Under the pieces are notes generated by a model that worked only from the letters and a program-made list of their open reading frames with translations, was not told the DNA's origin and made no database searches. From positions 110,403 through 174,402 of the forward strand of contig CAWJRG010000011.1 in NCBI GenBank assembly GCA_963845185.1: 64,000 nt of DNA, written 5' to 3'. Source of the DNA: an uncultured bacterium. GTDB taxonomy: Bacteria > Oederibacteriota > PGYV01 > CAWJRG01. The position numbers were made by a program, and so were the translations under genes. Below are positions 300 to 47,060 of the stretch, piece by piece (the first letter of the stretch is position 1; each line of letters begins with the position of its first letter).

Positions 300-947
300 T
301 TATTTCTTTTTTACGCTCTTTTTTATCATAAGCAGTCCGCCCTTTGCGCCCGGCACTGCTCCGCCTACAAGTATAAATTTATTTTCAGCGTCTATTTTTA
401 CCACCTTTAAATTCTGAACCGTAACATTTTCATTTCCCATCCTACCTGCCATTTTCTGGTTTTTAAATACTCTTGCAGGAAAAGTGCTCGAGCCTATGGA
501 GCCCGGCGCCCTGTGCTGCATTGAGCCGTGGGAATCCGGTCCTCCTGCGAAATTCCATCTTTTAACAACTCCCTGGGTTCCTTTTCCTTTCGAAACCCCT
601 GACACATCAACCCACTTTTGGTTTAAATCCTTGAAAACCTCAAGCGTCACCGCGTCACCTTGTTTATATTTGTCTAGTTCGGTCTTGTCTATTTTGAATT
701 CTTTTAAAACCTTTTTTAATGGCACATTTGCCTTGGTAAATATTCCCTTTATGGGCTTATTCACCCTTTTTGGTTTTTTGGCGTCGGTATTGCCAAGTAA
801 AAGTGCGCTGTATCCGTGTTCCTCCTCGGTTTTTTTGCCCACGACAACGGAGTCCTCAACTTCGATTATTGTCACAGGCACGGCTTCGCCTTTCTCGTTA
901 AAAATCTGCGTCATGCCGACTTTTTTTCCTAAAAATGCTGACAGCAC
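300..947 (-). CDS. rplC: 50S ribosomal protein L3
   Basis: GKKVGMTQIF, VDVSGVSKGKGTQGVVKRWNF, KMAGRMG motifs; GTG start with AAGGAG SD. Confidence 0.98.
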   Translation of the reverse strand: MLSAFLGKKVGMTQIFNEKGEAVPVTIIEVEDSVVVGKKTEEEHGYSALLLGNTDAKKPKRVNKPIKGIFTKANVPLKKVLKEFKIDKTELDKYKQGDAVTLEVFKDLNQKWVDVSGVSKGKGTQGVVKRWNFAGGPDSHGSMQHRAPGSIGSSTFPARVFKNQKMAGRMGNENVTVQNLKVVKIDAENKFILVGGAVPGAKGGLLMIKKSVKKK

Positions 948-960
948 CTTATTTCTCCTT

Positions 961-1059
961 AGAGTCCGTTGATTTTGCTAAGCGTCAACAGCGGCAGCAA
1001 AATCTTACGGAGTCTTATACCCGCTCAAGTCCGAGGCATACGCCGTGGACAAACGGTAT
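961..1059. ncRNA. Conserved two-hairpin intergenic element, copy 1 (between rpsJ and rplC)
   Basis: Shares aagc(c)gtc and cccgYtcaagtccgaggc..gcc..(g/a)gacaa motifs and stem architecture with 22104-22206 and 46847-47012; family unrecognised. Confidence 0.7.
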
Positions 1060-20190: not shown

Positions 20191-22089
20191 TTACCTGCCT
20201 CCGAATATCTTTAGGGCTTCGGGATTGTAAATCGCGAAAACCAGTATTACTATAACGGCACCGCTGAAAATTATAAGCGCGTAATTTTGCACTTTGCCGG
20301 ATACCGTAAGTTTTAGCTTCGAACCCGACCACCTGCATAAGAACGCCACCAGGTTTACCGCTCCGTCAACTATGTGCCTGTCGAACCACGCTATTACTTT
20401 TGTAACTGCCAGGAATGTATATTTTATTACAAAAAGGTAAATCTCATCTATGAAGAATTTGCGTTTGGACAGCACATAAAGCGGCCCTGTTATTTTTTTC
20501 ATTGTCTCTGCCTTGATTATTTTAAGGAAATAAATTATAAAAGCCAGGAATATGCCCGCAAGGGCCGCAGCATTTGATGTAACGGCTATTTTCATGTTAA
20601 ACTCTGTCGCCTGCGGTGACTCACCCAGGTAAAGAAAATTATAAATGCTCACCTGTTTACCCGGTATGCCTATAAACCCGGCGAATATAGAAAGCAGGGC
20701 AAGTATGACGAGGGGTATTGTCATGACTGGAGGCGATTCGTGACCGTGGCCTTCATCGTTTCCCTTGCCTGTAAAAGTCACAAAAAACAGCCTGAACATG
20801 TAAAAAGCTGTCATAAACGCTGTGATAAGAGCCGAATAATAAAGCATTTTGTGCCCGCTCTCCTGCGCCGCTACGAGTATTTCATCCTTGCTCCAGAACC
20901 CGGACAATGGGAAAATGCCTGCTATGGCAAACGCTGCTATTAAGAATGTAGCTGCCGTGATAGGCATCTTTTTGCCCAGTCCGCCCATTTTCCATATATC
21001 GTTTGTCGCGACTGAGTGTATTACGCTGCCCGCGCAAAGGAACAGCAAAGCCTTAAAAGCCGCGTGCGTAGTAAGGTGAAACATGCCTGTCGTATATCCT
21101 CCTACGCCGAGCGCGAGCATCATATACCCGAGTTGGCTCAGCGTGGAATAGGCCAGTACGCGTTTTATATCATCCTGCGTTAGCGCTATGCTCGCCGAGA
21201 ATATTGCTGTAAAAGCTCCAAGGTACGCTATTACAAGCATTGCTTCGTGGCTTGACGCGAATATTCCGAATAACCTTGCCACCATAAAAACCCCGGCTGC
21301 GACCATGGTTGCCGCATGAATCAGGGCAGATACGGGAGTGGGGCCTTCCATTGCGTCCGGCAGCCAAACGTGCAGCGGGAACTGCCCGCTTTTGCCCATG
21401 GCTCCGGAAAACAGTAAAAGCGCGATTATCATCATCATTTTGGGCGTTATGCTCCCCGACGCTACGCCTGCTTTCACGAAATCTTCCGCTTCGTGAAAGT
21501 TAAAGGTCTTAGCCAGATAGCTTAATATTAATATGCCGATTAAAAACCCAAAATCCCCAAAGCGGGTCACGACAAACGCCTTTTTGGCCGCGTCGCTGGC
21601 CTCGGGTTTTTCATACCAGAAACCGATTAAAAGGTACGAGCATAATCCCACGAGTTCCCAGAAAATATAAATCTGTATGAAGTTGTTCGCGAGCACCAGG
21701 CCAAGCATTGAAAAGGAAAAAAGAGATATAAAAGCGAAAAATTTCGGGTATGTCCTGTCCCCGTGCATGTATCCGACTGAATATATCTGCACCAGCAAGC
21801 TCACCGTGGTAACAACCATGAGCATTATTCCGGTCAGCGGGTTTATCAGTATGCCAATATTCCAGTTTATATTGCCAATGTGGAGCCACGGAATATTGTA
21901 TTCAAACGACATTTTTACTGCCAGCAGGCTGTACAGGATAAAGCAAGAAAACAAAAACGACAGGCCTATGCCGAGTATGGATATTGTGCTGCTAAGTAAG
22001 TTATATTTTTTAGTCAGCGCAACTATGATAAGGAATGCCGCAAACGGGCAAACCGGAATCAGCAATCCTGCCAAAACAATCGTGTTCAA
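20191..22089 (-). CDS. nuoL: NADH-quinone oxidoreductase subunit L
   Basis: GKSGQFPLHVWLPDAMEGPTPVSALIHAATMV. Confidence 0.96.
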   Translation of the reverse strand: MNTIVLAGLLIPVCPFAAFLIIVALTKKYNLLSSTISILGIGLSFLFSCFILYSLLAVKMSFEYNIPWLHIGNINWNIGILINPLTGIMLMVVTTVSLLVQIYSVGYMHGDRTYPKFFAFISLFSFSMLGLVLANNFIQIYIFWELVGLCSYLLIGFWYEKPEASDAAKKAFVVTRFGDFGFLIGILILSYLAKTFNFHEAEDFVKAGVASGSITPKMMMIIALLLFSGAMGKSGQFPLHVWLPDAMEGPTPVSALIHAATMVAAGVFMVARLFGIFASSHEAMLVIAYLGAFTAIFSASIALTQDDIKRVLAYSTLSQLGYMMLALGVGGYTTGMFHLTTHAAFKALLFLCAGSVIHSVATNDIWKMGGLGKKMPITAATFLIAAFAIAGIFPLSGFWSKDEILVAAQESGHKMLYYSALITAFMTAFYMFRLFFVTFTGKGNDEGHGHESPPVMTIPLVILALLSIFAGFIGIPGKQVSIYNFLYLGESPQATEFNMKIAVTSNAAALAGIFLAFIIYFLKIIKAETMKKITGPLYVLSKRKFFIDEIYLFVIKYTFLAVTKVIAWFDRHIVDGAVNLVAFLCRWSGSKLKLTVSGKVQNYALIIFSGAVIVILVFAIYNPEALKIFGGR

Positions 22090-22103
22090 ATTCTGTTCTC
22101 CTT

Positions 22104-22206
22104 AGATTTCGTTTACTTTGCCAAGCCGTCAACAGGTGCAGGCAAAGTATTACGAAATCTTGTACCCGCTCAAGTCCGAGGCCGCCAGGCCGAGGACAAG
22201 CGGTGC
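22104..22206. ncRNA. Conserved two-hairpin intergenic element, copy 2 (between nuoK and nuoL)
   Basis: agatttcgt/acgaaatct and tactttgcc/ggcaaagta stems, then gtaccc..gtccgaggcc gcca ggccgaggac..ggtgc hairpin. Confidence 0.7.
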
Positions 22207-22210
22207 TTAT

Positions 22211-22257
22211 TATTATTCAGTTTTTCAATCTAAGATCAAAAATCTAAAATGCACTAC
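22211..22257 (-). repeat. Short 7-nt periodic tract after the nuoK stop
   Basis: Minus strand attttag atttttg atcttag attgaaa. Confidence 0.4.
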
Positions 22258-22569
22258 TCAGTATTTCATAAGATTCATTTCATCCGCATGAATCTTCATT
22301 CTTTTCCTGTAAATCGCGAGTATTATCGCAAGCCCCAGAACGCTTTCCGCCGCTGCCACGGTTATAATGAAAATTGCGAATATCTGGCCCGGTATTTCGT
22401 TCGGAGTGATATATTTCGACACGGCAACCATGTTTATATTTACCGCGTTTAATAGGAGCTCGGTTGACATGAGTATGCCAATGGCGTTTCTCCTTGTCAG
22501 CACTCCGAATATTCCTACGGCAAAAAGTATTGCCGACAGTATTATGTAATGCGTGAGCGTGATTGTCAT
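22258..22569 (-). CDS. nuoK: NADH-quinone oxidoreductase subunit K
   Basis: RRNAIGILMSTELLLNAVNIN, VAAAESVLGLAII. Confidence 0.95.
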   Translation of the reverse strand: MTITLTHYIILSAILFAVGIFGVLTRRNAIGILMSTELLLNAVNINMVAVSKYITPNEIPGQIFAIFIITVAAAESVLGLAIILAIYRKRMKIHADEMNLMKY

Positions 22570-45959: not shown

Positions 45960-46835
45960 TTAATATATGACTTTATTCAGCGGGTATTCGATTATATCTT
46001 CTGCGCCTTTTTGTTTTAAAAGCGGTATTAATGTCCTTACCTTTGCCTCGTCAATGACAACCTCGATTGCCGCCCATTTGTCCTTTTCGCCTATCAGGTA
46101 AGACACCGTAGGCCTCTTTAAAGCAGGCAGGATCTCAAGTATCGCGTTTAAGTTTCTTTGCGCCACATTCAGTTTCAGCCCTACTTTTTCTTCGGCGTTC
46201 AGCGCGCCTTTTAAAAGCATCATTACGGTCTGTATTTTTTGCTTTATCCATGCGTTCCTCATGGCTTTTTTGTTTGCTATCATGACAGTAGTAGACACCA
46301 TAACTGTATCAATAATTCTCAGGTTGTTCGCGGCAAGCGACGAGCCGGTTTCCGTAAGTTCAACAATGGCGTCTGCCAGGTAAGGCGGCTTTGCCTCGGT
46401 TGCGCCCCATGAAAATTCAACTGTTGCTTTAACTTTGTTCTTTTTCAAATAGTCTTTCGTTGTGTTTACAAGTTCAGTCGCTATCCTTTTGCCCTGCAAA
46501 TCCTTGACTGTTTTTATCTTTGAATCATTTAGCGCTGCGAGTACCCATTTTACAGGCCGGAGCCCCTGCTTACCATAAACAAGCTTGTCAACGATTTCAA
46601 CAGCTACCCTACTTTCTTTTACCCAGTCCTCGCCTGTCAGCCCGGCGTCAAATACACCCTCGTTGACATACCTGGCCATTTCCTGCGCGCGCACCAGGGT
46701 CAGGGAGATTTCAGCGTCGTCAATGGACGGATAATAGCTCCTGTTTGTCATCTTTATGGAAAAACCCGCTTTTTTAAAAATATTAAAAGTTGATTCCTGC
46801 AGGCTTCCTTTTGGTAATCCTAATCTCAAAATCAT
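45960..46835 (-). CDS. hisG: ATP phosphoribosyltransferase, long form
   Basis: [46 protein letters not shown]. Confidence 0.95.
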
Positions 46836-46846
46836 TTTTTCCTCCC

Positions 46847-47012
46847 AAGCAAGAGTTTTTTTTGCAAGCCGTCGAAGGCAGTCAAACAATCCTGTGGATT
46901 ATTTGACGAATAGTTACAATAAGTTATAATTATAAAAGCTACCCAGCAAAAATATTACTCTTGCTTGCACCCGTTCAAGTCCGAGGCTGAAAAGCCAAAG
47001 ACAAGTGGTGCA
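46847..47012. ncRNA. Conserved two-hairpin element, copy 3 (hisG leader; enlarged loop)
   Basis: aagcaagagt/actcttgctt stem, aagccgtc motif, gcaccc..gtccgaggct gaaa agcc..gacaa..ggtgc hairpin. Confidence 0.68.
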
Positions 47013-47031: not shown

Positions 47032-47060
47032 ATAATATCATAAATATAGTTTATTATCAA
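47032..47060 (-). promoter_or_regulatory. Promoter for the hisG leader
   Basis: TTGATA-N17-TATTAT with TG extension, just upstream of element copy 3. Confidence 0.55.

Follow-up and report, generated by a model that had tools for sequence, protein, structure and literature searches.

The 64,000-nt stretch of an uncultured bacterial genome analysed here (contig CAWJRG010000011.1, positions 110,403 to 174,402, or G000:C11:110403-174402; hereafter the window) contains three copies of a two-hairpin element of about 100 nt. All three are on the minus strand, and all stop 0-2 nt short of the Shine-Dalgarno (SD) sequence of the same-strand downstream gene (rplC, nuoL, and hisG). The element is strongly structured and absent from Rfam. 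It belongs to a large family in the host genome (G000; 3.50 Mb, 11 contigs, 99.4% complete), its stems covary, and stand-alone relatives are conserved in a sister family. We tentatively favour, at a little short of an even chance, the reading that a conserved structured RNA module has proliferated in this genome as a co-transcribed leader placed against pre-existing SD sequences.

Three copies stop at Shine-Dalgarno sequences

A scan of the entire window with the covariance model R1, filters off, returns the three copies listed in Table 1; the remaining row is an opposite-strand match to hairpin A only, with an E-value of 0.84. The scan and the junction sequences bear out the original prediction of three like-oriented copies docked on the SDs of rplC, nuoL, and hisG. 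On the gene strand, hairpin B comes first and hairpin A follows. In copy 2, a single base links the two hairpins, and each of the two 9-nt inverted repeats that form the arms of hairpin A (22104-22112/22152-22160 and 22114-22122/22141-22149) is fully (100%) complementary. Against shuffled sequences, the fold of copy 2 reaches a z-score of -4.98 when the gene strand is folded and of -7.83 for the opposite strand. Copy 3 extends to 46847 because a 64-nt second repeat, module C, occupies its hairpin A loop. The 18-mer core motif CCTCGGACTTGARCGGGT occurs three times in the window, with 0.04 occurrences expected.

The junction of copy 2 reads AA, GGAG (22101-22098), 8 nt, and the TTG of nuoL. Copy 1 is followed by AA-GGAG-N7-GTG of rplC, and copy 3 joins GGGAGG-N5-ATG of hisG without a gap.

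The element had been described as matching no known riboswitch, ribozyme, or leader, and Rfam 15 is in agreement: there is no match at gathering score over the whole window. A permissive scan of 22050-22260 returns just two microRNA families (E 6 and 8.2), and nine loci from relatives give four sub-threshold rows (E 0.11-0.45). A full-text literature search with the lineage names and with SD-abutting repeats returns nothing on this element family. Among the matches listed for the core motif in public genomes, there are just single chance matches in unrelated high-GC genomes.

The Shine-Dalgarno sequences are older than the element

We compare the three loci with those of NuoL, RplC, and HisG homologues in as many as 30 related genomes; the closest homologues are 69%, 65%, and 78% identical, respectively. 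The nuoL search found a homologue in each of 31 related genomes (31/31), with identities reaching 69%, and the closest NuoL relative in a metagenome scan is 66% identical. R1 finds no copy at the relatives' loci (0/29 for nuoL, 0/29 for rplC, and 0/27 for hisG), and the element is present at this genome's own loci only.

The rpsJ-rplC junction in most of the relatives shown reads TAA, 1-2 nt, GGAGG, 6-9 nt, and the start codon, with no element. The nuoK-nuoL junction in the two closest relatives (G010 and G002) reads TAA, 1 nt, GGAGG, 6-8 nt, and TTG, again with no element; in other relatives, the nuoK-nuoL spacer reaches about 130 nt and likewise lacks it. Upstream of hisG, the relatives have a conserved promoter-like block, TTTATGTTATTAT, followed after about 15 nt by the SD (loci L351, L352, L356, L361, and L369). 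The window retains this block, which is conserved across families, as TTTATGATATTAT at about 47035-47060 (minus strand), 5' of copy 3.

The SD at the three window junctions pre-dates the element, and the insertions are specific to this lineage. Copies 1 and 2 were inserted between the stop codon and the SD, copy 2 with a 51-nt AT-rich spacer, and copy 3 between the promoter and the SD. The original prediction had allowed that the element supplies the SD. It does not, because the relatives' junctions have an SD without the element, and array copies and gene-less copies of the element have no SD.

A large family with covarying stems

The original prediction rested on three copies and took the element to be rare. 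The family is in fact large, with over 120 members in the host genome and stand-alone relatives in sister families. The core motif, with up to 3 mismatches allowed, matches 122 times, and nhmmer gives 181 matches, 123 of them near full length. R1, which is built from an alignment of 58 simple copies (A2; mean column identity 72%) and is therefore trained on this genome alone, matches the genome at least 148 times, with scoring limited to 150 of the 1466 candidates.

RNAalifold predicts 25 pairs from A2, and 19 of the 25 have compensatory changes among the 58 copies. Among 89 distinct sequences from 6 genomes, 94.5% of the pair cells are standard pairs, and 20/25 pairs have changed on both sides. 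None of 500 shuffles is as good, and when the partners are slid by 1-3 columns, 29-47% remain paired; the pairing is thus far above that of the controls, and the covariation claimed for the stems stands. The helices covary, and the invariant nucleotides are located at bulges and internal loops. By inspection, the ends of the consensus are two different hairpins and not inverted copies of each other.

Close copies are informative as well. Between the members of 47 independent nearest-neighbour pairs of copies (80-98% identical), differences amount to 0.076 per site at paired positions versus 0.158 at unpaired positions, and the same pairs contain 33 double compensated changes and 16 wobble-preserving changes.

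Two sequence features that the original prediction took as conserved are more restricted. The tandem GA mismatch exists in the plus-strand reading only (UC/UC on the gene strand), and it is not a family feature, because no more than 27 of the 120 distinct copies, among them copy 2, carry it on both arms. The aagc(c)gtc motif is part of the variable tip of hairpin A and is conserved in some subfamilies only.

Placement against ribosome-binding sites

All placement figures rest on crude longest-open reading frame (ORF) gene calls, which are biased towards starts with an SD. The next downstream gene is on the element's own strand for 163 of the 181 nhmmer matches, and between co-oriented genes there are 140 sense and 9 antisense copies. 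The SD core begins 0-3 nt past the element in 86/123 full copies (63 at +1). The 3'-flank matrix (n = 123) reads W, R, then G at +3 (90), G at +4 (84), A at +5 (83), and G at +6 (81). The 5' flank is merely AT-rich, with A at -1 in 83/123 copies and no other conserved target. The 28/123 full copies with no SD within 25 nt are members of tandem arrays and gene-less copies. The tight register is not a mere lack of room, because among the 87 copies whose 5' side offers over 50 nt of non-coding sequence, 60 still adjoin an SD (9 precede another copy, and 18 have no SD). Orientation and position are thus strongly non-random with respect to the SD throughout the genome, in line with the original prediction; neither a match in Rfam, nor random placement, nor a lack of covariation was found.

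Gene direction and replication direction are confounded, because 84% of the genes are on the leading strand; five copies are located at lagging-strand gene pairs, and four of these are sense. In the crude gene calls, 2270 of 2698 genes are on the strand favoured by local GC skew, a strong bias.

Besides rplC, nuoL, and hisG, the downstream genes have atpA-, argG-, metK-, gatC-, murC-, glpK-, and fabD-like N-termini, and many encode lipoproteins; the names outside the window are readings of N-terminal sequences. No common functional theme is seen among the N-termini read, and signal peptides are not significantly enriched downstream of the element (29/74 vs 828/2742, p = 0.12). In this respect the element is unlike a riboswitch or a ribosomal-protein leader, since its downstream genes are not functionally related.

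We consider it very improbable that the element is a DNA-level regulatory cassette that brings a promoter or a protein-binding site, in the manner of Neisseria REP2/CREN or Correia elements. In the 51-nt spacer, a sigma-70-like site is matched once, and 5 nt separate the end of its -10 box from copy 2. The 500-nt region at copy 2 has 3 promoter-like matches versus 1.0 expected, a weak signal. In relatives, TATAAT-like hexamers are located directly 5' of many stand-alone copies, too near the element to place a start site. However, a scan confined to sigma-70-like sites finds no promoter enrichment in the 5' flanks (32/123 copies vs 107/600 control stretches), and the matches are at scattered positions. 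Moreover, many copies are operon-internal, 0-50 nt past a co-oriented gene, and a site in duplex DNA has no need of compensatory stem changes. No terminator-like site is found in or directly after copy 2.

A stand-alone form is conserved in a sister family

R1 matches 10/23 other genomes of the same order and 0/75 genomes of other orders in the phylum, with 1-18 copies per relative genome versus more than 120 here. In one genome of another family (G001), the two full-length copies examined adjoin SDs. In the sister family f10 (G014, G019, G020, and G023), the copies are stand-alone, and none of those examined is a leader copy. Within 14 nt 3' of 21/22 non-tandem f10 copies there is a hairpin of -7 kcal/mol or lower, mostly as an A-run, a GC stem, and a T-run. 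Such a terminator-like hairpin directly past the structured part resembles an independent small-RNA gene. Other copies lie directly against a convergent gene, at its stop codon in the case of an SDR-like gene and at its 3' end in the case of a tRNA gene.

At three f10 loci, synteny extends to both flanks in different species and genera, and the flanking proteins are 64-90% identical. Over the 25 model pairs, the orthologous copies have 2, 3, 4, 5, 6, 8, and 12 compensatory differences in seven comparisons and no broken pair, and the unpaired columns vary freely. Because every pair difference between orthologues is compensatory, the structure appears to be maintained at fixed loci and not to be merely a relic of copying; this comparison is the strongest sign of such maintenance. 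The stand-alone form in the sister family is most simply a small structured RNA gene, whose transcription we infer.

Copying and candidate movers

The main rival of the leader reading is a selfish, non-autonomous DNA repeat of the MITE (miniature inverted-repeat transposable element), REP, or PATE kind, whose insertion machinery would recognise the SD or its complement; we regard this as possible, though doubtful. The hairpins would then be mobility signals in single-stranded DNA, and the host would tolerate the insertions. In the opposite-strand reading, the complement of the SD would precede the element on its 5' side. A selfish repeat would account for the high copy number in one lineage, for the three window sites that are empty in every relative searched, and for the exact GGAG register that is kept even with room elsewhere. 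It would also account for the slightly better folding of the opposite strand, the excess of A-C mismatches over G-U pairs in this genome, and the broken pairs among close copies.

Tandem arrays, gene-less copies, and a nested small repeat point in the same direction. The array at G000:C9:916520-917176 (minus strand) has seven complete units and one interrupted unit with a 100-nt period and does not adjoin an SD, and the arrays in relatives have 2 and 3 units. Gene-less copies are present in this genome. Module C, of 64-70 nt, consists of a GGGTAG...CTACCC hairpin and a GTCAAATAGTCC/GGACTATTTGAC hairpin and is present at many genomic sites, either alone or nested at fixed points of the element, in the hairpin A loop of many copies and in the hairpin B 5' arm of others. 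No target-site duplication is found (the best signal, 6-11/123, is due to tandem units), as in HUH-type or retro-type insertion.

On the other hand, the genome, 99.38% complete, has no match to the Y1 HUH/RAYT transposase domain (PF01797), with positive controls matched, and none to the TnpB-like domain (PF07282). Y1-domain ORFs, mostly of about 320-345 aa, are present in 22/31 related genomes, but their presence does not track the element: the genome with by far the most copies has zero Y1 ORFs. The two end hairpins are unlike each other, and the 5' flank on the gene strand has no conserved target beyond AT-richness. In addition, orthologous copies in relatives keep all model pairs through 2-12 compensatory changes, and paired sites among close copies change at half the unpaired rate.

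REP/BIME elements with RAYT and the ends of IS200/IS605 (PATEs) are hairpin repeats that insert strand-specifically by a short target without target duplication. The element shares with them the hairpins, the lack of target duplication, and the strand-specific position beside a short sequence. It differs in having no Y1 protein in the genome, unlike hairpins, no conserved 5' target as read on the gene strand, and stems kept at orthologous loci. The original prediction had left a choice between a cis-acting RNA and a mobile unit. The element behaves as a unit copied to many gene starts, and the data fit a mixture of both.

Several other candidates were tried. A reverse transcriptase as the mover is rejected, since its matches belong to a group II intron, which itself targets an SD plus ATG. 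The intron, located outside the window, has six near-identical copies of ~1.93 kb and one fragment in this genome (Rfam group-II-D1D4-6, 100 bits; domain V/VI, 49 bits). Each copy sits directly past GGAGGnGGnTATGA, which comprises the gene's SD, the ATG, and one extra base. The domain VI loop carries an AGGAGG-N9-ATG of its own, whose frame continues past the 3' splice site and enters the signal peptide that the interrupted gene encodes. The sole link seen between intron and element is that two intron copies are located behind leader copies.

A DDE-type MITE is likewise rejected, there being no target-site duplication and no inverted ends. Integron attC sites have R''/L''...L'/R' core sites (GTTRRRY) at the hairpin foot and come with cassette arrays and an integron integrase. 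In a comparison made by eye only, with no search for an integrase, GTTGAC is located in the tip of hairpin A and not at its foot, and the host genes belong to core operons. An anti-SD guide, in which a CCUC of hairpin B pairs with the SD, was dropped, because UC/UC is present on both arms in 27/120 copies only and the SD-adjoining copies of G001 lack it.

A possible role as a leader, and points against it

Because copies 1 and 2 are located between a stop codon and an SD, and copy 3 between a promoter and an SD, the element is probably part of the mRNA. In the leader reading, the module that stands alone at syntenic loci of the sister family, followed there by a terminator-like hairpin, has been copied at least 120 times here. 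About 70% of the full copies end 0-3 nt before the pre-existing GGAG of a same-strand gene, and the module would be transcribed within the mRNA as a structured leader or an intercistronic spacer. Two stable hairpins ending at the foot of the SD would leave the SD single-stranded and could insulate the downstream cistron, on its 5' side, against structures lying upstream, against ribosome traffic, and against 5'-dependent decay. The hairpins may also be a docking or processing site common to the free RNA form. Any effect on translation or stability, and the mechanism of copying, are inferred.

Several observations weigh against the leader reading. The f10 copies are antisense to both neighbouring genes in 22/26 cases, where 52-71 nt separate them from the stop codon of the convergent neighbour, and the f10 hairpin could equally be the neighbour's terminator or serve both strands. 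No promoter is established for the stand-alone form. Among nearest copies, 61 of the 110 differing pairs are broken in one copy, which indicates decay; the nearest-copy comparison therefore shows constraint as well as decay. More than 80 independent beneficial insertions are a lot to ask of selection alone. The predicted probability that the SD is unpaired is higher behind the element (0.54, n = 85) than otherwise (0.44, n = 250; p = 0.001), which is in favour of the leader reading, but the effect is small and depends on the crude gene calls.

The strand that folds is a further difficulty. The B-to-A strand has the larger number of G-U pairs when both strands are folded to minimum energy (233 vs 148 in this genome, 28 vs 6 in relatives), which speaks for that strand, but about half of the excess in this genome comes from one conserved U-G pair in hairpin B. 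The other strand folds better, by 1.95 kcal/mol in 83/123 copies of this genome and by 3.4 kcal/mol in 21/25 copies of relatives. The model pairs of this genome contain more A-C mismatches (67) than G-U pairs (34); the mismatches cluster at the two terminal pairs of hairpin B and at one pair of hairpin A and resemble arm combinations shared within subfamilies. In relatives, the G-U excess at model pairs (25 vs 3) is inflated, because 13 of the 25 are in two columns where the inner stem is misregistered, as inspection of the alignment rows reveals. Mismatch types, G-U counts, and folding energies thus disagree, and we lean towards the B-to-A strand.

Regulatory and processing alternatives

Csr/Rsm systems combine protein sites at the SDs of many mRNAs with multi-site decoy small RNAs, the sites being short GGA motifs. 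The element could, by analogy, be an operator through which a global post-transcriptional regulator acts: beside the SD, a protein or the 30S subunit would bind the conserved hairpin B together with the hairpin A internal loop. Free copies and arrays would then be decoys, as CsrB/RsmZ are for CsrA. We find this unlikely. The same module is present both as an SD-adjoining leader and in stand-alone form, with arrays of 2, 3, and 7 units. Its invariant nucleotides are at bulges and internal loops between covarying helices, and the leader form precedes many unrelated housekeeping genes. All of this would suit an operator. The binding is, however, purely predicted, with no candidate protein, and the target genes have no theme, as the signal-peptide counts given above illustrate. 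The sister family would also have decoys without targets. The element is like Csr/Rsm sites in being located beside many SDs and, repeated, in stand-alone units, and differs in being a 100-nt two-hairpin module.

The intercistronic RNase III sites of phage T7 are interrupted hairpins between cistrons just 5' of the next SD. The element is similarly made of interrupted hairpins between cistrons by the next SD, and an RNA processing signal, either self-cleaving or cut by an RNase III-type enzyme just upstream of the SD to leave a protective hairpin on the upstream fragment, would be consistent with several features. At rplC and nuoL the element is operon-internal, from stop codon to SD. It has an interrupted helix of ~20 bp with a conserved asymmetric internal loop, and it combines conserved unpaired nucleotides and covarying helices with multi-copy and tandem occurrence. 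We nevertheless regard a processing signal as improbable: Rfam 15 gives no match to a ribozyme family, and no pseudoknot or tertiary covariation is seen, though none was specifically looked for. In addition, unlike the T7 sites, it occurs in stand-alone form and in arrays as well.

A broader possibility, which we judge rather unlikely, is that an undescribed post-transcriptional system of this uncultured order acts genome-wide and uses the element as its cis-acting handle, or else that the element is a new self-processing RNA. In the first case, a protein or the small ribosomal subunit would recognise the hairpin A internal loop and the bulges that are invariant in hairpin B. More than 80 housekeeping genes would be tied to the system through the module at their SDs, and the stand-alone copies and tandem arrays would be the free or decoy form of the same RNA.

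Comparison with known repeats

Dispersed structured repeats are common in bacteria, usually in a loose intergenic position. Pneumococcal BOX, enterobacterial ERIC/IRU, and Bacillus cereus bcr1 elements are structured repeats of ~100-150 nt that are transcribed with their neighbours and whose modules may be present, absent, or nested. To our knowledge, none of the three is in a fixed SD register; their intergenic position is loose, and both orientations are common. The element is like all three in being structured and modular, with nested parts, and in being placed to be co-transcribed, and is unlike them, as far as we know them, in being locked to the SD. A review describes bcr1 as two independent stem-loops (PMC3184786).

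The same review covers what we regard as the closest published counterparts, namely the Neisseria REP2 (contact-regulatory element) and the Borrelia plasmid IR-A/IR-B repeats. These are 120-180-bp intergenic repeats without terminal inverted repeats, located immediately 5' of unrelated genes, in the 5' untranslated region (UTR), with two internal stem-loops predicted in the RNA (PMC3184786). REP2 is described there as having about 26 copies and its own promoter, ribosome-binding site, and ATG (PMC3184786). The element likewise has two internal stem-loops immediately upstream of ORFs. Unlike REP2 as so described, it stops 0-2 nt before an older SD and has no start codon or ribosome-binding site of its own. 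It also differs in being often intra-operonic, in having more than 120 copies and arrays, and in having syntenic stand-alone homologues in another family.

Dozens of essential genes, some of them within the S10 and nuo operons, have this folded 100-nt module in one fixed register at their ribosome-binding site, an arrangement not known from any bacterial repeat described so far. A module that acts on the mRNA would amount to a natural portable 5' leader or insulator and would be relevant to translation control and synthetic biology. A purely selfish one would be a mobile element with the SD as its target, a choice of target for which the literature searched has no description. Either way, it bears on gene annotation and on the reading of 5' UTRs in this lineage.

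Associated repeats and coordinates

One subfamily ends in ...CGCTATAA/GA, and a shared GTTTTCAATTTTCAAT-like sequence takes the place of the SD downstream of it. This shared flank suggests a larger composite repeat. In two relatives, hairpin-A-only units are located past the stop codons of short repeated ORFs whose products end in a Cys-rich ...CGYSKC (G003:C117:2800-3400 and G021:C62:54000-54600). Coordinates of the individual features are collected in Table 1.

Table 1 Element copies, flanking features, and associated repeats. Positions are those of the window unless a contig of the host genome (C) is given.
Feature	Position	Strand	Details
Copy 2 (flagged stretch), between nuoK and nuoL	22104..22206	-	R1 102.1 bits, E 7.5e-23, model positions 1-99; fold z -4.98
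Copy 1, between rpsJ and rplC	961..1059	-	R1 94.8 bits
Copy 3, between hisG promoter-like block and hisG SD	46847..47011	-	R1 61.5 bits over 46915-47011
Module C, second small structured repeat inside hairpin A loop of copy 3	46881..46944	-	64 nt
Hairpin B of copy 2, sequence-conserved 5' hairpin	22162..22206	-	UU bulge, bulged G, UC/UC internal loop
Hairpin A of copy 2	22104..22160	-	two 9-bp helices, AA/A internal loop between, variable tip
GGAG SD core of nuoL	22098..22101	-	separated from copy 2 by AA (2 nt)
nuoL ORF, behind copy 2	20191..22089	-	632 aa, TTG start at 22087-22089; ORF call
AT-rich spacer, nuoK stop codon to copy 2	22207..22257	-	51 nt; absent from relatives
nuoK ORF, upstream of copy 2	22258..22569	-	103 aa; ORF call
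rpsJ stop codon	1064-1066	-	flank of copy 1
rplC SD GGAG	955-958	-	flank of copy 1
rplC start codon GTG	945-947	-	flank of copy 1
rplC ORF	300-947	-	flank of copy 1
hisG SD GGGAGG	46841-46846	-	3' flank of copy 3
hisG start codon ATG	46833-46835	-	3' flank of copy 3
hisG ORF	45960-46835	-	3' flank of copy 3
CGCTATAA-ending subfamily, examples	C9:656517-656611, C9:671475-671569, C9:676579-676677		
CGCTATAA-ending subfamily, further examples	C5:32833-32927, C5:35397-35491, C1:208375-208469		
Group II intron copies	C9:699931-701857, C9:811158-813089, C9:845005-846928, C10:383310-385241, C10:831391-833306, C11:61512-63458		
Group II intron fragment	C1:269104-269898

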